Of a stretch of DNA of 64,000 bases, positions 1,095-56,921 are shown one piece after another. Origin of the DNA: a bacterium (GTDB lineage Bacteria; Patescibacteriota; Minisyncoccia; Minisyncoccales; RBG-13-42-11); contig JBDRGQ010000006.1 of NCBI GenBank assembly GCA_043817685.1, forward strand, positions 1,879 through 65,878, written 5' to 3'. Made by a program: the position numbers and the translations under genes. The stretch's first letter is position 1; the number at the start of each line of letters is the position of its first letter. Below the pieces are notes generated by a model. The model ran no database searches. It saw only the letters and a program-made list of their open reading frames with translations, and was not told where the DNA came from.

Positions 1095-2356
1095 AGTTTT
1101 AATAATTTTCTAAATCTTTCTTCTTCCTCAAACGGACCTATAATAGCTAAGTTTAAATTCTTTGGCTGAAAAATATCCTTTGCTACCTTTAGAATATCAT
1201 TTACAGAAACTTTATCAATTCTTTTGAAGATTTCTTCTGGTTTCAATATCTTCCCTTCTAGTATTTCTTGACTAGCGTAAAAGAAGGCTTTAGCATCTGA
1301 AGCTTCTAGGCCCAAAGACACTCTTCCTTTTATGTTTTCCTTGGCTTTTTTAAGTTCTGCGGCAGATATTTTCTTTTGGGTAAGTTTTTTAAATTCCTTT
1401 AAAACAGTTAGTATAGCTTTATCAACTCTTTTGTTATCTACTCCTGCTTTAGCAACTAAAAATCCTACATCTGGGTCTGCTTCATTCTCTGTTTTTATAT
1501 AATAGGCCAATCCCTGCTTTTCTCTAACCTCTGTAAATAAACGAGAACTCATCATCTCACCCAAAATAACGGAAAGCACGTCTAAAACGTATTTTTTAGG
1601 ACTAGAAAGATTATACGTTCTAACTCCTAAATGAAAATGAGTTTGATCTGTTTTTTTAAAATTGACTAAGCATTCTGGAACGGTCTGTCTTTCTATTACT
1701 TTTGCTTTTTTATTTGATTTTGAAACTGATATTTTAGAAAAATACTTTTTAATTTGCTCTACTATTTGATCTTCTTTAAAATTACCGGCTATGCAAACTA
1801 TAGTGTTTGAAGCGGTATATTGGGATTTTCTATAATTCAATATCTGCTGACGAGAAATATTTTCAATGGTTTCTTTGTTCCCAAGTATATCCCAACCCGC
1901 TGGTTGATCTCCGTAAAGAAGACTTTTCCAAACTTCTCCAATATAAGCCATTGGACTGTCTAAATACATGTTTATTTCTTCTATAATAACCATTCTTTCT
2001 TTTTCTATCTCCTTTGGCGGGAATAAAGAATTTAAATAAATATCTGAAGCCCAGTCTAAAGCCAAATCTAGTTGAGAAGCTTCAACTTTGGCATAATATC
2101 CAGTGCATTCTTCACTAGTAAATGCATTGAAGATACCTCCTACTTTATCTAAGGGTTCTATTACCTTTAAAGTTGTTGGTCTTTTCTTGGTTCCTTTAAA
2201 AAATAGGTGTTCCAAAAAATGAGAAATTCCAGATATATTCTTTTTCTCGTATTTTGAACCTGTTCCTATCAAAGTAAAAACAGTTACAGCCTGAGTGTTG
2301 GTTTGAGGAACAGTAATAATCCTCAGCCCATTTTTGAGAGTTATTTTTCTGAACAT
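1091..2356 (-). CDS. M16 (pitrilysin/insulinase) family zinc peptidase
   Basis: Inverted zinc motif HFLEHLFFKGT (HxxEH) near the N-terminus. The 421-aa length fits the two-domain M16 layout. Confidence 0.85.
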   Translation of the reverse strand: MFRKITLKNGLRIITVPQTNTQAVTVFTLIGTGSKYEKKNISGISHFLEHLFFKGTKKRPTTLKVIEPLDKVGGIFNAFTSEECTGYYAKVEASQLDLALDWASDIYLNSLFPPKEIEKERMVIIEEINMYLDSPMAYIGEVWKSLLYGDQPAGWDILGNKETIENISRQQILNYRKSQYTASNTIVCIAGNFKEDQIVEQIKKYFSKISVSKSNKKAKVIERQTVPECLVNFKKTDQTHFHLGVRTYNLSSPKKYVLDVLSVILGEMMSSRLFTEVREKQGLAYYIKTENEADPDVGFLVAKAGVDNKRVDKAILTVLKEFKKLTQKKISAAELKKAKENIKGRVSLGLEASDAKAFFYASQEILEGKILKPEEIFKRIDKVSVNDILKVAKDIFQPKNLNLAIIGPFEEEERFRKLLKL

Positions 2357-3688: not shown

Positions 3689-5383
3689 CTATTGAACTAA
3701 TCCATCACTAACATTAATACTCGGATCATTGGGCAACAAAGTATTAATCCCGACATCCACACTTTCTAAGTTAACGTTTGTCCATTGATCTCGACCAGTG
3801 AGCCTGGCCTGACTTATTAATTCTGCGGCCTGGTTCTTTTGGGAATCGTAAGGACTTAGGGCGACCTGAAAGAATATACTCGGAGGGAGATTCAGTATTC
3901 CTTGCCCCACTAATAAGTCTCCAACATTCCAAACCAATTCTCTGGAACCTGAATCAAAAGTAAATTTATCTGCTTCTTCTTCTGGAAATATCTGCCCTGT
4001 TAATCTTACATTATAAGGAAGTATTGCTTTTGCTTTAACATCTGTCATGTCATTAAAATAATTCTTAGCCTGCCAAGAAATTGTATAAGTGGTAGTTTCT
4101 CCCACTTTGGGTGGAATAAATCCTGAATTACCGAATACTTCATCCTCATAAAAACCTTTTTGAGTTATTTCTATTTTTGAATTTACTTTATTAATAAACT
4201 CTCCCTTGACCTGGCTAAGATAAACATTTGTTTTAATCTCTGGATTTTTATCTTCTGTACTGTTTATTGACCAGCTGTTTTTAGTATTTATCCAAAATTC
4301 AACTTTTCCTTCTTCGTGCGGAGTTAGTAACTGTAAGTCTGAAACTCTTCTCCAATCCCAAAGAATAGAATTGTCTCCATCTTCGTACACTCCGTCTACT
4401 GTTCTTAAGGTATTAAAGTCTAAAGCTGAACCAGTAAGAGTGACCTGGAGAGTCATATCAGTTAAAATGTTTTCTCCTATATTTCTAAAAAATATTTCGT
4501 AATGAAGACTATCCCCGGGATCTACAACGAACTCAGGATTATTATTTATATTCTGAGTTATGTATAAAGTAGGCTTTATAATACTTATTCCTTTAATAGC
4601 TTCTTTTAATAAGACAAATTCTCCATCATACCAACTTCCTAATTGAGCCCTTAAGATCTTTTCTTCTCCTATGTCTCCCATTATTTTACCTGTAATTTCT
4701 ATCCTTCCCCCATCTGCCTTGTTCAATAATCCTATATCCCATTCTTTCTCATCTAAAGAAGACGGATTAGATTTTACGAATTCAAAATCAGAAGGATAGT
4801 CCATTAAAACTCTCAAATCAGATAGGGGATAATTTGCATTAGAAAAATAATTAAGTTTGAATTTAATTTCTTTCCCAGATTCAATGTTGGTTGGCAAATC
4901 AAACTCAAAAGTCAAAGGAACTTTTTCCAATAAAGTGGTGAATGAGGTAGAGGATTCATATCTAGCTTTTAAGTCTTTTGGTTTATAGCTTAAGGAAACT
5001 TTGGCGGTTTTAATATCTCCTTCTTTACCTAAAATCCTGCCCTTAAAAGAAATCGTTCTCTCTTCTCCAGGATAAATAGCCCCGCCTAATTCATTTTCAT
5101 CTTTAGTAACTCTAGTGGCATCTTCTCCAACTGGAATAGAATATTTTGGATATTCAAATATTAATTCTGGTTCTTCCAAACGAGCCTCTCCATTATTCTT
5201 ATATTTTACTATATACTCCACTTCTTCCAACAAACTGGTATTGCTTGGTCCCAGAATCTCCAATTTCAAAATATCTTTGGAATATATATTCTTTTGGTAA
5301 TAATAAATACCTAAAGCACCGACTAAAACGGCTGCAATTATTATAACTAAAGTAGTCTTTTTCATATTCTTTAACTTTAACAA
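3689..5383 (-). CDS. membrane-anchored hypothetical protein with about 4 repeated beta-sandwich (CARDB/DUF11-like) modules
   Basis: N-terminal TM (TTLVIIIAAVLVGALGIYYY). Recurrent modules of about 120 aa carry a pattern of the type xVxYxIxxxNxGxxxL. The family assignment is tentative. Confidence 0.4.
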   Translation of the reverse strand: MLKLKNMKKTTLVIIIAAVLVGALGIYYYQKNIYSKDILKLEILGPSNTSLLEEVEYIVKYKNNGEARLEEPELIFEYPKYSIPVGEDATRVTKDENELGGAIYPGEERTISFKGRILGKEGDIKTAKVSLSYKPKDLKARYESSTSFTTLLEKVPLTFEFDLPTNIESGKEIKFKLNYFSNANYPLSDLRVLMDYPSDFEFVKSNPSSLDEKEWDIGLLNKADGGRIEITGKIMGDIGEEKILRAQLGSWYDGEFVLLKEAIKGISIIKPTLYITQNINNNPEFVVDPGDSLHYEIFFRNIGENILTDMTLQVTLTGSALDFNTLRTVDGVYEDGDNSILWDWRRVSDLQLLTPHEEGKVEFWINTKNSWSINSTEDKNPEIKTNVYLSQVKGEFINKVNSKIEITQKGFYEDEVFGNSGFIPPKVGETTTYTISWQAKNYFNDMTDVKAKAILPYNVRLTGQIFPEEEADKFTFDSGSRELVWNVGDLLVGQGILNLPPSIFFQVALSPYDSQKNQAAELISQARLTGRDQWTNVNLESVDVGINTLLPNDPSINVSDGLVQ

Positions 5384-11432: not shown

Positions 11433-11882
11433 ATGAAGCCCTTAGCTGATAACAAAAAAGCATATTTCGATTATGAAATTCTAGAAAAGTATGAAGCAGG
11501 AATTTCTTTGATTGGACAAGAAGTAAAGTCAATAAAACAAGGCCATATGAGTTTAAGCGGTTCTTATGTGGTGATAAGGGGGAATGAAGCTTTTTTACTA
11601 GGAGTTCATGTTCCTCCTTATCAGCCTAAAAATGCCCCCAAAGAATATGACCCCCAAAGGACAAGAAAACTTCTTTTAAGGAAGCAGGAAATAAACTATT
11701 TAATCGGAAAAACTAAAGAGAAAGGGTTGACTTTAGTGCCATTAAGGGTGTATACTCTGAAAGGTAATATCAAATTAGAATTTGGAGTGGCTAGAGGGAA
11801 AAAACAGAAAGATAAGAGAGAAACGATAAAGAAACGAGAAACGGAAAGAGATATGAAAAGAGAGTTAAACCTGAGGGGGTGA
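11433..11882 (+). CDS. smpB: SsrA-binding protein SmpB
   Basis: NKKAYFDYEILEKYEAGISLIGQEVKSIK is the conserved SmpB core. The ORF track starts at 11394. I prefer ATG 11433 (or 11424) because TAAAAT at 11420-11425 lies just upstream. The stop TGA is at 11880-11882. Confidence 0.9.
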   Translation: MKPLADNKKAYFDYEILEKYEAGISLIGQEVKSIKQGHMSLSGSYVVIRGNEAFLLGVHVPPYQPKNAPKEYDPQRTRKLLLRKQEINYLIGKTKEKGLTLVPLRVYTLKGNIKLEFGVARGKKQKDKRETIKKRETERDMKRELNLRG

Positions 11883-12217
11883 AAGGCTTCGACAGAAAAT
11901 CTAATTAAAATATGCAAGCCGAGTTATTAGATCTTGTAAAACTAATAAAGAAATAAGTGCCAACTTATTCAAACAACCAGCATTAGCAATAGCTTAATGC
12001 CATCTCGTCTGTTGATTCTCGCTAGGCAGAGTCGAGGTGTCATATTAGCGAGATAGATAGTTTTTTTGATTCGGGAAAACTATTAAAGATGGTTCTGGGT
12101 CAATGGTATAGATTTTTTGCCCGGTTTAAACTCTATATCTTAGATGAAACCGGTCTACGCTTGTAGAAATATTTTAAAGAAATTTTTTGGACAGGGGTTC
12201 AATTCTCCTCACCTCCA
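11875..12217 (+). ncRNA. ssrA: tmRNA (ssrA)
   Basis: 5' GGGGGUG (11875-11881) pairs with 3' CACCUCC (12210-12216) and includes a G3:U wobble, followed by discriminator A. T-arm is AGGGG-UUCAAUU-CUCCU. An in-frame tag ORF GCC AAC ... GCT TAA (11959-11997) encodes ANLFKQPALAIA. It lies directly after smpB. Confidence 0.9.
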
Positions 12218-12233
12218 CTAACAATATAAAAAA

Positions 12234-21170: not shown

Positions 21171-21246
21171 GGTGAGCGTAGTGTAGTGGCCCAGCACAAG
21201 AGTTTGTGGAACTCTTAGGGGGAGTTCGAATCTCCTCGCTCACCCA
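21171..21246 (+). tRNA. tRNA-His (anticodon GTG)
   Basis: Cloverleaf with anticodon stem AGAGT/ACTCT and loop TTGTGGA. The extra 5' G(-1) pairs with C73 (GGTGAGCG...CGCTCACC). T-arm is GGAGTTCGAATCTCC. Confidence 0.92.
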
Positions 21247-40311: not shown

Positions 40312-40623
40312 ATGCCCAAAGAATCAGAAATTCGAAAAAAGGCTGTAGAGATATTGGAAAAGAAAGGTTTTGTTTATTGGTATCCAGCTAAGGTTAGATT
40401 TAAACAGAATGACATCTTCGGTGTGTTTGACTTAGTTTGCTGGAGAAAAAGAACTACTAAAATCAAATTTTTGCAGTTAACCACTTTAGCTAATCTTTCT
40501 ACCAGAAGAAAAAAAATAGAGGGATTTATGAAAGAAAACAGACTTCCCCGTAAAGTTTCTGTTGGCATAGAGATCTGGGGCTGGAACCAGCGAAAGAAAG
40601 AATTCAAGATAGAGGAGATATAG
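40312..40623 (+). CDS. hypothetical protein (possible degenerate PD-(D/E)XK / Hjc-like fold)
   Basis: 103 aa. It has an E...KKGF...NDIFGVFDLVCW...IKFLQLT layout loosely like Hjc/YraN nucleases, but Q-L-T replaces the E-x-K triad. Confidence 0.3.
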   Translation: MPKESEIRKKAVEILEKKGFVYWYPAKVRFKQNDIFGVFDLVCWRKRTTKIKFLQLTTLANLSTRRKKIEGFMKENRLPRKVSVGIEIWGWNQRKKEFKIEEI

Positions 40624-40689
40624 GCTCAATGGGCGACGAGAACTTCATTCTCATCTTCACCTTCGTCCCGCTGATGAGAAGCTTGGCGC

Positions 40690-40717
40690 TTGACAGGAAT
40701 CAAAAAATGAATATAAT
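40690..40717 (+). promoter_or_regulatory. consensus sigma70-type promoter
   Basis: TTGACA (40690-40695), a 16-nt spacer, then TATAAT (40712-40717). Confidence 0.6.
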
Positions 40718-40829
40718 AGGGATAGAACCAATCGAATAGACACCCATTAATATCGTCTGTTCGAAAAAGGTCGATATCCAGCAGCTCCGCTTAAGGCGGA
40801 GCGACGCAGTTAAGAAAGCTAATATAAAT

Positions 40830-41039
40830 ATGATTGAAGACAAAGTTTTAAATCCTTTCGTCAGCGATGACGAAGAAGAAACTACAGAAGAGACTCCTGA
40901 GAAGGAAACTGAGCCTACGGATCAGGCTGAAGAAGAAACTCCTTCAGAAGACGCTCCTTCGACAGAAGACGCTCCTTCAACAGAAGAGACTCCTTCAGAA
41001 GACGCTCCTTCAACAGAAGAGACTCCAACTGAGGAATAA
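40830..41039 (+). CDS. hypothetical highly acidic tandem-repeat protein
   Basis: 69 aa, MIEDKVLNPFVSDDEEE... followed by EETPS/EDAPST repeats. It has its own promoter, a leader of about 110 nt and a terminator. Confidence 0.45.
   Translation: MIEDKVLNPFVSDDEEETTEETPEKETEPTDQAEEETPSEDAPSTEDAPSTEETPSEDAPSTEETPTEE
40932..41036 (+). repeat. in-frame 15/18-nt tandem repeats (33-nt super-unit)
   Basis: Units are gaagaaactccttca / gaagacgctccttc(g/a)aca / gaagagactcc(ttca/aact). The string gaagacgctccttcaacagaagagactcc occurs twice. Confidence 0.85.
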
Positions 41040-41058
41040 ATGTAACTAGCAAAAGAAA

Positions 41059-41086
41059 GTCCTCTCGAAAGAGGGGTTTTCTTTTA
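41059..41086. terminator. bidirectional intrinsic terminator (acidic ORF / tyrS)
   Basis: CCTCT-CGAA-AGAGG hairpin (41061-41074) with T-rich tracts on both strands. Confidence 0.65.
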
Positions 41087-41097
41087 TTCGGGGCTTT

Positions 41098-42291
41098 TTA
41101 TTTTATCTTTACGAATTTTCTTTTACCCACATTTATCACCATCCCCTTTTTTGTCTCTACGTCTTTATCCCAATCATCCCAGACCATTTTATCAACCCTT
41201 ACTCCTTTTTGGAGAATTAATTTTTTGGCTTTTGATTTGGAAGAGGCTAAATTTATTTTTACTAATAAATCTAAGATATTTATTCTCCCGGTTATAACAA
41301 ATTCTTGAATCTCGGAAGGAAGCTTCTTTTCTTCAAACACTTTTTCAAATTCTTTTTTAGCTTTTTCAGCTTCTTTTAAAGAATTGTAAGTTTTGACTAT
41401 TTCAAAAGCTAATTCTTTTTTAATATTTTTTGGATTAGATTTTCCAGATTGTAAATCCTTTTTATATTGTTTTACTTTTTCTGGAGTTATCTTTGTTAAT
41501 GTCTCAAAATATGGAATTATTAATTCGTCTGATATGGACATTACTTTCCCAAACTTCTCTTTAGAAGAATCGTCTATCCATATACAGTTTCCTGAACTTT
41601 TACTCATTGTCTTTCCGTCTGTGCCTAATATCATAGGACCAATCAAAACAAATTTTTCTTTTTTTCTCATTTTTTGCTGAAGCTCTCTTCCTATCAACAT
41701 ATTGAAGACTTGATCGCTGCCTCCAATTTCCAAATCAACATCCATAAAAACAGAATCGTATCCTTGTAAAATAGGGTACAAGACCTCGTGCATCCAAACA
41801 ACATTTCCCGATCCCAGTCTTTTTTGAAACATATCTCTTTGAAAAAGTCTGGCCGCAGATATGTTTGAAGATATATTTATAATCTCTTTTAAACCAAGCT
41901 TTAACAACCATTCTCCGTTATATTTAATCTTTACATCGGAAAGGTTCAAAACATTCTTAAGCTGCTTTTTCCAATTTTTAATATTCTCTTTTATTTCTTT
42001 TCCCAGTTTTTTAGGTCTTGCGGATTCTCTTTGAGATGGGTCTCCAGCCAAAACAGTACCCGTGCCAACCAATAAGATAGCTTCATGCCCCAAATCAGCA
42101 AACTCCTGCAGTTTTCTTAAAGGGATTACGTGTCCTAAATGAAGTTTTTTACCAGTGGGATCTACCCCCAAATAAACTCTTATCTTTTTTTTCTGCATCA
42201 GGGCCTTTAGCCCTGCTTTGCTAGGTAAAATCTGCTCTACTCTTTGAGTTAAAACTTTGTCTATTTTTGCCGAATTGTCGTTTTTTGTCAT
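41098..42291 (-). CDS. tyrS: tyrosine--tRNA ligase
   Basis: GVDPTGKKLHLGHVIPL (HIGH), GKTMSKSSGN (KMSKS), and a C-terminal S4-like domain. Confidence 0.93.
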   Translation of the reverse strand: MTKNDNSAKIDKVLTQRVEQILPSKAGLKALMQKKKIRVYLGVDPTGKKLHLGHVIPLRKLQEFADLGHEAILLVGTGTVLAGDPSQRESARPKKLGKEIKENIKNWKKQLKNVLNLSDVKIKYNGEWLLKLGLKEIINISSNISAARLFQRDMFQKRLGSGNVVWMHEVLYPILQGYDSVFMDVDLEIGGSDQVFNMLIGRELQQKMRKKEKFVLIGPMILGTDGKTMSKSSGNCIWIDDSSKEKFGKVMSISDELIIPYFETLTKITPEKVKQYKKDLQSGKSNPKNIKKELAFEIVKTYNSLKEAEKAKKEFEKVFEEKKLPSEIQEFVITGRINILDLLVKINLASSKSKAKKLILQKGVRVDKMVWDDWDKDVETKKGMVINVGKRKFVKIK

Positions 42292-45572: not shown

Positions 45573-46922
45573 TTATCCAGCGTAAATGCGCTGCTTTATT
45601 AACGTTATTTCATTGTTAAGATTCTCGTTATTTTCCAACTCTTTCACTATTTTCCCACAGGCATGTATGACTGTTGTATGGTCTTTTCCTCCGAATTTTC
45701 TACCTATAAAAGGATATGAACTTTTTAATTCTTCCCTTAATAAATACATGGCTATTTGTCTTGGTCTTACTATTTCTTTCTTTCTAGAAAAAGATAAAAT
45801 CTCCTTTTCTTTTAAGTCATAAAATGTAGCCACTGACTCTATTATTTTCCTTGGATTAGCTATTTTACTAGGGGACAACAAAAGGCTTTTTAGTAATAAT
45901 TTGGCAGCTTCCAAATCAGGATTTTTATTATTTATCCTTTGGTAGGCAACTAGCCTATTAAGGGCTCCTTCAAGCTCTCTAACGTTTCTTTGGATGTTAG
46001 AGGCCAGATATTCTAAAACATCATCAGCAAAGCCCAATCCTTTCTCTTGGGATTTAGTTTTTAAAATAGCCATTCTGGTTTCATAGTCTGGATATCCTAT
46101 GTCTCCAATCATCCCTCCTTCAAATCTGGAACGAAGTCTTTCTTCCAAGGCTGGAATAGCTTTTGGAGGCTTGTCAGAAGACAAGATTATCTGTTTATTA
46201 TTTTCATAAAGAGTATTAAAAGTATGGAAAAATTCTTCTTGAGTTTTTTCCTTTCCAGCCAAAAACTGGACATCATCTAAAATCAGAACATCTATCGATC
46301 TGTATTTTGTTTTAAAAGTCTCAACGTCATGATTTTTAATAGAAGAGACTATACCGGCAGTGAATTTTTCGGCAGGGATATATCTTACTTTTTTCTGTGG
46401 GAAATTTTTTATTATTATATTCCCAATAGCTTGAAGTAAATGGGTTTTCCCAAGGCCAACTCCTCCGTAAATAAAAAGAGGATTATATACTAGCCCCGGT
46501 TTTTTTCCTACTGCCCAAGCGGCTGCATGAGCTAATTCGTTGGATGGGCCGACAACAAAGCTTTCAAAAGTATATCTAGGGTTGAGATTAGTTTCTTTAT
46601 CTATTTTAAATTCCTCTATCTCAAGCTGACCAACAGATGATAAAATAGCAGAGCTTTTTTTAGCAATTTTTAATTCTGATTTTCCCAAGATATATTTCAC
46701 GTCTTTTACTTCCTTATCCAAATTAAATATGATTTTCGCAATAGTTTTTCCGTACTTATTTTCCAGCCATTCTTTAGCGAAAGAGTTGGGGACAGACACT
46801 AAAACCTGCCCCTCTTTACAAGAGAGAATTCCAGTGTCTTTAAACCAGGTGGAAAAATTAGCTTGCGAAATATTTAATTGAATTTGAGCAAGTACAGCTT
46901 GCCAGAGTTCTTCTTTAGTCAT
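45573..46922 (-). CDS. dnaA: chromosomal replication initiator protein DnaA
   Basis: YNPLFIYGGVGLGKTHLLQAIGN (Walker A), VLILDDVQFL, and a domain IV motif GGKDHTTVIHA. Confidence 0.97.
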   Translation of the reverse strand: MTKEELWQAVLAQIQLNISQANFSTWFKDTGILSCKEGQVLVSVPNSFAKEWLENKYGKTIAKIIFNLDKEVKDVKYILGKSELKIAKKSSAILSSVGQLEIEEFKIDKETNLNPRYTFESFVVGPSNELAHAAAWAVGKKPGLVYNPLFIYGGVGLGKTHLLQAIGNIIIKNFPQKKVRYIPAEKFTAGIVSSIKNHDVETFKTKYRSIDVLILDDVQFLAGKEKTQEEFFHTFNTLYENNKQIILSSDKPPKAIPALEERLRSRFEGGMIGDIGYPDYETRMAILKTKSQEKGLGFADDVLEYLASNIQRNVRELEGALNRLVAYQRINNKNPDLEAAKLLLKSLLLSPSKIANPRKIIESVATFYDLKEKEILSFSRKKEIVRPRQIAMYLLREELKSSYPFIGRKFGGKDHTTVIHACGKIVKELENNENLNNEITLIKQRIYAG

Positions 46923-56381: not shown

Positions 56382-56921
56382 CTACTGGATGACCGAAGCA
56401 TCTAATAGAATTATAGTATGCAAGTCATTGTATGAACCATCGTAGCCGTAGCTCGCTCTAATAACAACCGTATCTCCTTTTTCTGCTTTCGTCATCGACA
56501 TGAAACTTTCATATCCTTCTTCAAGATTGGTTTCAGCACGAACACCTTCGCTGCTGATGGTAACCGTGTATCCGTCAGTTCCCGGTCCCAGGATGATGAC
56601 GTTAACCATTCTTCCTGTCCATGGGTTGACGTTGCGAGGGTTACGTATGTCTGCATCAGCGATTATTCCGGAAATAGTAATTATATCGCCTTGTTCGTAT
56701 TTATTTTTCAGCGATTTCTTGATGAATTCCGCAACGGTGACAGGTTTTTCTTTTGGCTGCTCGGTCGTCTTCTCAGTTGGCTGCTCTGCTGGGATCTTCG
56801 TTGTAGGCGTATTTTCCGGAGCTATCGCCTTGGCGTTATCCGCGGATGGTTTAGAGCAGGCGGAGAATGGTATGACGAGTAAAGAGATTGCTAGAAAGAT
56901 CAGTATTAATTTTTTAAACAT
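56382..56921 (-). CDS. hypothetical lipoprotein
   Basis: Signal peptide with the lipobox-like PFSAC, followed by a Pro/Thr/Glu linker. Strong SD GGAGGT with a TTGACA promoter (56995-56990). GC-rich (the 60-nt line at 56521 counts 29/60 GC). Confidence 0.6.
   Translation of the reverse strand: MFKKLILIFLAISLLVIPFSACSKPSADNAKAIAPENTPTTKIPAEQPTEKTTEQPKEKPVTVAEFIKKSLKNKYEQGDIITISGIIADADIRNPRNVNPWTGRMVNVIILGPGTDGYTVTISSEGVRAETNLEEGYESFMSMTKAEKGDTVVIRASYGYDGSYNDLHTIILLDASVIQ

Follow-up and report, generated by a model that had tools for sequence, protein, structure and literature searches.

Positions 40690-41086 (+) of the 64-kb window considered here, the whole analysed stretch of Patescibacteriota contig JBDRGQ010000006.1, are read, with a probability of roughly 0.6, as a monocistronic and probably very highly expressed micro-protein gene. 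Its product would belong to a Paceibacteria-restricted family and combine a docking motif with a polyanionic tail, and its expression would be controlled through a short box in the mRNA leader. The components of this reading do not carry equal weight: there is little doubt that a protein is really encoded here, in a conserved unit whose leader is conserved too, the chances are about even that the box serves post-transcriptional control or ribosome recruitment, and the mode of action through a docking motif and polyanionic mimicry is proposed only tentatively. The parts as such, promoter, untranslated region (UTR), small open reading frame (ORF) and terminator, are ordinary; the family is clade-wide and unannotated, and micro-protein family and leader box alike are undescribed and without assigned function. 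The coordinates of the individual features are collected in Table 1.

The initial annotation of this DNA had proposed a single unit of promoter, structured leader, hyper-acidic ORF and terminator, and as an independent transcription unit this proposal holds. The TTGACA-16-TATAAT promoter it had pointed out is indeed a perfect match to the consensus, and sites of this type with at most one mismatch number two in the 64-kb window against 0.64 expected. Among 58 distinct related leaders the -35 element TTGACA is kept in 55, the -10 element TATAAT in 56 and the spacer of 16 nt in 55, and the heptamer TAGAACC, or its first part TAGA, recurs in relatives 5-7 nt past the -10 element. At the other end, the terminator that had been placed at 41059-41086 was recovered as a stem with a T-run, and 47 of the 58 distinct relatives have a strictly defined hairpin with a T-run after the stop codon; as the convergent tyrS gene ends at 41098, the terminator is probably bidirectional. 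The marks of a simple transcription unit, a consensus promoter with a spacer of 16-18 nt and a GC-rich hairpin with a U-run after the stop codon, are thus all present in the sequence. Since dnaN and dnaA are near, in a placement found also in loci L090, L092 and L095, the presumed origin of replication is a few kb away from the unit, and promoter quality, promoter conservation and near-origin position together point to very high expression.

The heptamer TAGAACC has 13 copies in the window (7.4 expected), one of them after the only other perfect promoter. This second TTGACA-16-TATAAT, in the stretch 21108-20889 (-), opens a leader of about 190 nt before greA (20888-20409, Pfam GreA). TAGAACC is found there 12 nt past the -10 element, and immediately ahead of the ATG there is a CCCCC/GGGGG hairpin that the terminator scan did not score as a terminator. 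The layout recalls the Escherichia coli greA leader and its GraL RNA.

ORF calling returned the previously annotated reading frame of 69 codons. Its product has a net charge of about -26 with 41% Glu plus Asp, and contains two Lys and no Arg; the richness in Glu, Asp, Thr, Pro and Ser noted before is genuine, and its extent, given as about half, is in fact 80% (55/69). Overlooked by the initial annotation was a conserved N-terminal peptide: all members of the family begin with a variant of M-I-Y-E-D-K-x-L-T-P-F-V-S-Q, which reads MIEDKVLNPFVSDD in the lineage of the window. The tail that follows is hypervariable, with 30-65% Asp plus Glu and few basic residues, and it lengthens and shortens through in-frame repeat slippage. 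At its end a Glu, sometimes a Glu-Glu pair, mostly comes after a hydrophobic residue or Ser. The total length is 27-80 aa across the family. In-frame conservation in relatives, on which the initial annotation had made its coding claim depend, is observed: 59 distinct relatives keep the frame, and codon-position entropy over 28 distinct N-terminal coding sequences is 1.32, 1.03 and 0.63 at positions 3, 1 and 2, respectively, with frequent synonymous exchanges such as TAC/TAT, GAA/GAG and GAC/GAT. The in-frame repeats of 15 and 18 nt described earlier were found again by Tandem Repeats Finder (TRF), together with a 33-nt unit of 100% identity over 1.9 copies. The variation in repeat length that had been foreseen is seen between relatives (L022/L024, L004/L010, L061/L062 and L047/L050), where the difference between close relatives amounts to entire repeat units or to single Glu residues, and length changes are always in frame. 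An independent Logan assembly contig (L001), the only one recovered with the neighbouring genes, breaks within the repeat array.

The exact 69-aa protein is not on record, and a single-sequence homology search with it scored 575 candidates, none of them significant. A profile built from the syntenic homologues retrieved 43 proteins from a set of 5.8 billion proteins and, in an exhaustive set of 1.84 billion representatives, 77 cluster representatives at 50% identity. These 77 are all 29-79 aa long and stand-alone, so that no fusion (Rosetta-stone) protein was found among them. Database homologues are unnamed or called "hypothetical protein" and are without a Pfam domain; Pfam and NCBIfam assign no family to the micro-protein of the window, and ten diverse members gave only matches with E > 0.5. 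AlphaFold, supplied with an alignment of 38 sequences, predicts a micro-protein without secondary structure (predicted local distance difference test, pLDDT, 63; predicted template modelling score, pTM, 0.14).

The window presents the gene order pilB-like ATPase, ComEA/LTD protein, yebC, p103 (encoding a protein of 103 aa), micro-protein unit, convergent tyrS, PBP1, dnaN and dnaA. Scans with p103 of species-representative genomes and Joint Genome Institute (JGI) metagenomes yielded 88 loci, 72 of which have a small acidic ORF next, amounting to 59 distinct proteins; at the other loci the contig in most cases stops short or is interrupted by runs of N. The metagenome-assembled genomes with p103 relatives are assigned to Candidatus Nealsonbacteria, Paceibacterota, Jorgensenbacteria and Wildermuthbacteria, all of them Parcubacteria/Paceibacteria of the Candidate Phyla Radiation (CPR). 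In more than 90 related Paceibacteria/Nealsonbacteria contigs the unit occupies the same place, after yebC and a resolvase gene (Hjc-like p103 or RuvC) and before convergent tyrS, at 4-6 kb from dnaN-dnaA, and loci fetched via the micro-protein itself show the same neighbourhood. The whole unit is present in L002-L008, and the module persists without tyrS in L022, L024, L082, L088 and L090. Across syntenic loci the neighbouring protein is 50-86% identical, and since promoter, box and peptide motif are kept where neighbouring proteins are only about 50% identical, the gene is under strong selection.

The product of p103 itself finds no match in Pfam or NCBIfam. Its AlphaFold model (pLDDT 85), made from an alignment of database homologues, adopts a PD-(D/E)xK fold, for which Foldseek ranks archaeal Hjc Holliday-junction resolvases first in the PDB (probability 1.0, TM 0.54-0.60). 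The usual catalytic E-x-K motif is replaced by Q55-L-T57, which leaves the activity uncertain. In L095 (2757-3269) and L100 (1082-1576) a Pfam RuvC gene takes the slot after yebC, and promoter, box and micro-ORF follow it there. Judged by its model and its slot, p103 appears to stand in for RuvC in the yebC-ruvC position as a non-orthologous replacement. That an Hjc-like protein fills this slot deserves attention in its own right where recombination in CPR bacteria is concerned.

The position of the micro-protein gene downstream of two unrelated resolvase genes, at every locus seen, is a suggestive functional hint, although confounded by general synteny. It could indicate that the micro-protein regulates the upstream resolvase, as a DNA mimic or an antitoxin-like partner, with which the Hjc-like nature of p103, the persistence of the micro-protein gene next to RuvC and a polyanionic composition suited to DNA mimicry all agree. 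However, the entire neighbourhood from pilB to dnaA is syntenic, so that adjacency is expected from descent alone; the micro-protein gene is driven by a perfect promoter of its own, and its translation is not coupled to that of the resolvase gene; very strong expression against a low-abundance resolvase would be an odd stoichiometry; and two lineages, L065 and L074, keep p103 without the micro-protein. A dedicated resolvase inhibitor is for these reasons unlikely. Nor does the locus resemble a type II toxin-antitoxin pair, as the gene has its own promoter, the p103 slot can be taken by RuvC, as in L095 and L100, and p103 can occur alone, as in L065 and L074.

Besides the peptide motif, the initial annotation had overlooked a second conserved element, an AAGGUCG box (usually AAAAGGUCG) in the leader. 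Each of the 71 leaders of the family has the heptamer AAGGTCG without a mismatch, mostly in the form AAAAGGTCG with A or G next, and the box occurs also in L090, L095 and L100. Elsewhere in 308 kb, both strands counted, AAGGTCG has 30 copies, about 20 of them unrelated and the others in truncated copies of the leader; no other 5' UTR of the window has the box. In the minimum free energy (MFE) fold of the window leader, three bases of the box, GGU at 40769-40771, are paired, with ACC at 40727-40729 as their partner. Minimal leaders have a constant 33-35 nt of unstructured A/U-rich RNA between box and AUG, for which RNAalifold on 17 such leaders gave no pairs, and in the remaining layouts one to three hairpins are inserted after the box, the first of which corresponds to hairpin 2 of the window. 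Full-text literature searched for the box sequence turned up only primers and unrelated text, and nothing specific was found on small acidic proteins or the anti-Shine-Dalgarno sequence of CPR bacteria.

The absence of an obvious Shine-Dalgarno (SD) sequence, which had been remarked on for this ORF, is correct for the unit but is the norm of the genome: most of the 52 long ORFs of the window have A/T-rich upstream regions (...AATTATG) without an SD sequence, and the canonical GGAGG precedes few genes, for example those starting at 56921 (-) and 47844 (+). Judged from these upstream regions, SD-independent initiation appears to be the main mode in this organism. A function of the box as SD of an upstream mini-ORF was dropped, as inspection of the leaders by eye, without a systematic scan, disclosed no conserved start codon after it. 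Pairing of the box with the 5' end (GA(A)CC/GGUC), with the TPFV codons (CCUUUU), with the terminator or with transfer-messenger RNA (tmRNA) is possible in some leaders, and by eye none of these pairings is conserved.

The secondary structure of the leader is significant as a whole and variable in its parts. The segment 40724-40832 folds with -29.8 kcal/mol (z = -3.9), which none of 200 shuffles matched. Of the two hairpins that had been described, the first is present with a stem of 10 bp in the fold, not 9 bp. Where the 5' segment measures 15 nt or more, as in 41 relatives, this 5'-proximal region folds with a median z of -3.6, with 83% below -2, even though the sequences are unalignable. 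Most leaders have a 5'-proximal stem-loop, ranging from 7 bp to structures of about 100 nt, and in lineages without it the box is only 10-13 nt from the predicted 5' end. The second hairpin is as annotated, its pattern CTCCGC-N3-9-GCGGAG occurring once in the window against 0.00 expected. Across 18 distinct relatives 98.4% of its cells pair, a value reached by none of 500 shuffles and biased upward by the loose pattern on both arms with which the set was gathered, and two-sided changes occur at five of seven pairs (CUCCGC/GCGGAG, CUCCAC/GUGGAG, UCCCGC/GCGGGA and UUCCGC/GCGGAA). Helices are nevertheless optional, numbering 0-3 after the box and 0-2 before it, and are wholly absent in L084 and L088. 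Since hairpin modules of unequal length throw the box out of register in a MAFFT alignment of whole leaders, the leaders were analysed module by module.

An invariant box between covarying helices, in a leader of significant fold energy, could be expected of a riboswitch that senses a ligand or of some other known type of cis-regulatory RNA. Yet only a stretch of 7-9 nt is invariant, and most predicted folds leave it unpaired; the helices vary in sequence, size and number and can be missing, minimal leaders show no consensus structure from box to AUG, and no expression platform is visible, neither a terminator or attenuator nor an SD-hiding hairpin by the start codon. Rfam 15 at gathering thresholds recognised in the window only tmRNA and tRNA-His, both outside the unit; relaxed to E values up to 10 over 40550-41150, it returned chance-level matches only (best E = 0.26, a miRNA model), and on 20 related loci it had no match within the leader. 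A match to isrJ in L048 (37.1 bits, gathering threshold 37) was taken as chance, being at threshold and just downstream of the micro-ORF, approximately at the terminator and the end of tyrS. A riboswitch is accordingly quite improbable.

The same leader might be part of a non-coding small RNA (sRNA), with the acidic ORF as by-product of GAA-rich repeats and the box as seed. A very strong promoter, a transcript of about 360 nt with its own terminator, an invariant single-stranded motif and a GAA-rich sequence open in several frames would suit such an RNA. What makes it very unlikely is that 59 distinct sequences share the start, the frame, the 14-residue motif and a stop codon close ahead of the terminator, that variability is highest at codon position 3 and that repeat changes are always in frame. 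A dual-function RNA would be compatible with these observations.

Comparison with known systems gives partial likenesses only. Small acidic disordered regulators are known that act by binding to the transcription or nucleoid machinery. One case is the delta subunit of Bacillus RNA polymerase with its acidic C-terminal tail, and SutA of Pseudomonas aeruginosa is reported to be another (bioRxiv 10.1101/423384). The micro-protein shares with both that it is small, strongly acidic and predicted to be disordered, with a short possible docking segment and a promoter that predicts abundance; unlike them it is much shorter (27-80 aa), has no sequence similarity to them, and what is conserved in it is no helix or domain but an N-terminal peptide of 14 residues. 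DNA mimics such as phage T7 Ocr, Gp5.9, ArdA and Neisseria DMP12 and DMP19, and eukaryotic polyanions such as prothymosin-alpha and DSS1/Sem1, form a second group. Prothymosin-alpha is described as a small acidic protein (PMC4910978). A very high density of negative charge and a gene near those for a resolvase, dnaN and dnaA bring the micro-protein close to this group and make electrostatic competition plausible, whereas the classical bacterial and phage DNA mimics are folded, with charges spaced as in B-form DNA, and the micro-protein is predicted to be unfolded with an unconserved tail.

On the side of the leader, 5' UTR stabilisers are known from the 5' hairpins of ompA and aprE and from STAB-SD of Bacillus thuringiensis cryIIIA, and in the T4 gene 32 operator a structured element gives way to A/U-rich RNA that reaches the AUG without structure. 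A STAB-SD or standby element is marked by complementarity to the 16S rRNA 3' end, away from the site of initiation, and by stabilisation of the mRNA. The micro-protein leader has a hairpin at the predicted 5' end, a short conserved purine-rich box far upstream and about 34 nt of unstructured A/U-rich RNA to the AUG; its box AAAAGGUCG matches the SD sequence only in AAGG, has an invariant UCG and stands in a genome that barely uses SD. By analogy, the protein seems most like the small acidic disordered regulators and polyanionic mimics, and the leader most like 5' stabiliser and operator leaders. Judged by sequence, membership in any of the compared families is unsupported, with no sequence or profile match and no fold to compare, and the motifs that define Pup/UBact, RiPP precursors, toxin-antitoxin pairs and riboswitches are absent.

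A conserved N-terminus before a hypervariable C-terminus, runs rich in Asp, Glu and Pro from about residue 14 and a Glu at the end of most members might also be expected from a regulatory or precursor peptide, be it an MgtL-like sensor of intrinsic ribosome destabilisation, the precursor of a ribosomally synthesised and post-translationally modified peptide (RiPP) or a Pup-like tag. The unit, however, has no downstream gene, ending in a terminator before convergent tyrS. The layout resembles leader and core of a RiPP precursor, yet tails are without Cys and not core-like, and no modifying enzyme is encoded within 3.5 kb on either side of any locus. Pup has a C-terminal GGQ/GGE and UBact a C-terminal R[T/S]G[E/Q], and both are linked to genes of the PafA/Dop ligase and the proteasome. 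The micro-proteins share their size class (30-80 aa), acidity, disorder and mostly a final Glu, but end in ...TEE, ...ASE, ...VEE or ...IE without Gly-Gly or Gly-Gly-Gln/Glu, have their conserved part at the N-terminus and are surrounded, at the loci checked, by housekeeping genes only, with no ligase or proteasome gene nearby. Such a peptide has hardly any likelihood.

The unit had first attracted attention as a GC-rich islet, by implication a foreign one. The counts of 30/60 and 29/60 GC reported for two 60-nt lines are exact (window mean 20.4, standard deviation 4.5), and the GC content of 43.5% against 34.0% for the window is in the 98th percentile, although not the maximum. At third codon positions (GC3) the ORF has 0.27 against 0.28-0.38 in its neighbours, and at positions 1+2 it has 0.54 against 0.34-0.41; because the excess lies at positions 1+2, it reflects the Glu/Asp/Pro/Thr/Ala/Ser composition together with the GC-rich hairpins. 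Horizontal acquisition, which the GC content alone would favour, is next to negligible in view of a host-like GC3, synteny throughout the clade in more than 90 loci and a GC difference between unit and flanks that averages -0.005 in 66 relatives.

The C- and G-ending codons that had been noticed at 40629-40690 belong to a 36-aa ORF that is not conserved in the closest relatives. The insert of which this stretch consists, the GC-richest piece of the region, is missing in the closest relatives L002, L003 and L010 and reduced to AGCCTCAATGGGG in L012; L004, L015, L016 and L017 have a version of 165-185 nt with about four hairpins and the same start GGCTCAATG. On this comparison of sequences it is a lineage-specific non-coding insert outside the conserved unit. 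The 61 nt in the window look like a remnant, and the element may represent a small structured RNA in decay, an insert of MITE type (miniature inverted-repeat transposable element) or the terminator region of an operon.

How the micro-protein unit might work can be proposed in outline. The hairpin at the very 5' end would shield the mRNA from 5'-initiated decay, in analogy to the ompA, aprE and ermC leaders. As the box is invariant while its surroundings drift, it may be read sequence-specifically by a trans-acting factor, which could be a protein, a segment of rRNA or the 30S subunit, or an RNase, with consequences for translation or stability. In minimal leaders the box has a fixed place about 41 nt before the AUG, approximately where the mRNA covered by an initiating 30S subunit has its upstream edge. 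Since a short conserved peptide of hydrophobic and charged residues precedes a free polyanionic tail, the N-terminal peptide could dock on a conserved partner, and the tail could act as nucleic-acid mimic or electrostatic competitor toward a basic DNA- or RNA-binding protein. A more far-reaching version, in which AAAAGGUCG is a new SD-independent ribosome-recruitment or autoregulation operator of Paceibacteria, in charge of a gene with one of the strongest promoters in these reduced genomes, and the product an abundant polyanionic mimic that docks via MIYEDKxLTPFV on a core DNA or RNA machine, is speculative and rather improbable; its targets may be the adjoining Holliday-junction resolvase, a nucleoid protein, RNA polymerase or the ribosome.

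Several observations weigh against the reading as a box-controlled gene for a docking, polyanionic micro-protein. The gene is absent at this position in L065 (~2091-2165) and L074 (~2091-2160), where p103 is followed by a single hairpin AAAGACC...GGTCTTT, which looks like a bidirectional terminator, and then by tyrS; because the module is missing, the gene is dispensable or located elsewhere in these lineages. Since the entire neighbourhood has kept its gene order, the linkage to a resolvase may reflect inheritance and not function. The box has only AAGG in common with the SD sequence: AAGG or AAAGG of the box could pair with the canonical CCUCCUUU tail, the invariant UCG could not. Acidic low-complexity ORFs are open in other frames too, so that it is the N-terminal motif and the codon-position pattern that carry the coding call. 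The upward bias in the pairing figure for hairpin 2 has to be added to these.

Table 1. Features of the micro-protein unit and its surroundings; positions refer to the window unless a related locus is named.
Feature	Position	Strand	Remark
p103 gene	40312-40623	+	103 aa, after yebC
Pre-promoter insert, 61 nt, 55% GC, 8-bp inverted repeat	40629-40689	.	between p103 stop and promoter
Longer insert versions	L004 ~4310-4480; L017 ~2110-2290		
Sigma-70-type promoter TTGACA-16-TATAAT	40690-40717	+	12/12 consensus positions
TAGAACC, predicted transcript 5' end	40723-40729	+	start site inferred 6-8 nt past -10
Hairpin 1, 10-bp stem, 13-nt loop	40732-40741 with 40755-40764	+	MFE fold
AAAAGGUCG box, between hairpins 1 and 2	40765-40773	+	predicted single-stranded in most relatives
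Hairpin 2, GCUCCGC(U)-UAA-(G)GCGGAGC	40784-40802	+	fold; unique in window
Micro-protein gene	40830-41039	+	69 aa; codons 1-14 (40830-40871) = conserved motif MIEDKVLNPFVSDD
In-frame tandem repeats, periods 15, 18 and 33 nt	40931-41029	+	TRF; encode (E/D)(E/D/A)(T/A)PS(T) tail units
Intrinsic terminator CCUCUC-GAAA-GAGGGG + U-run	41060-41086 (stem 41060-41076)	+	terminator-like sites found, both strands
dnaN and dnaA	44326-45471 and 45573-46922	-	3-6 kb downstream of micro-protein unit

Some observations concern the wider surroundings. In L092-L094 (1-1515) a large serine recombinase gene with Resolvase and Recombinase Pfam domains stands at the upstream end of the block in place of the pilB-like ATPase gene, which hints at a mobile-element insertion beside the locus in this lineage. 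The window also has a tmRNA gene at 11875-12220 (+), scored with 160 bits and encoding the tag peptide ANLFKQPALAIA, and a tRNA-His(GTG) gene at 21172-21244 (+); these two are the sole Rfam and ARAGORN matches in the window.

A large share of the genes in the tiny genomes of CPR bacteria and Patescibacteria is without known function, and the micro-protein gene, which is often missed by gene callers and figures in no database description, is probably among the most highly expressed of its cell. It offers several handles on these uncultivated bacteria. The short N-terminal peptide (MIYEDKILTPFVSQEE) is a possible bait for the partner, a reader of the box could reveal how translation or mRNA stability is controlled in organisms largely without SD-led initiation, and the repeat array, variable between strains, provides a third.

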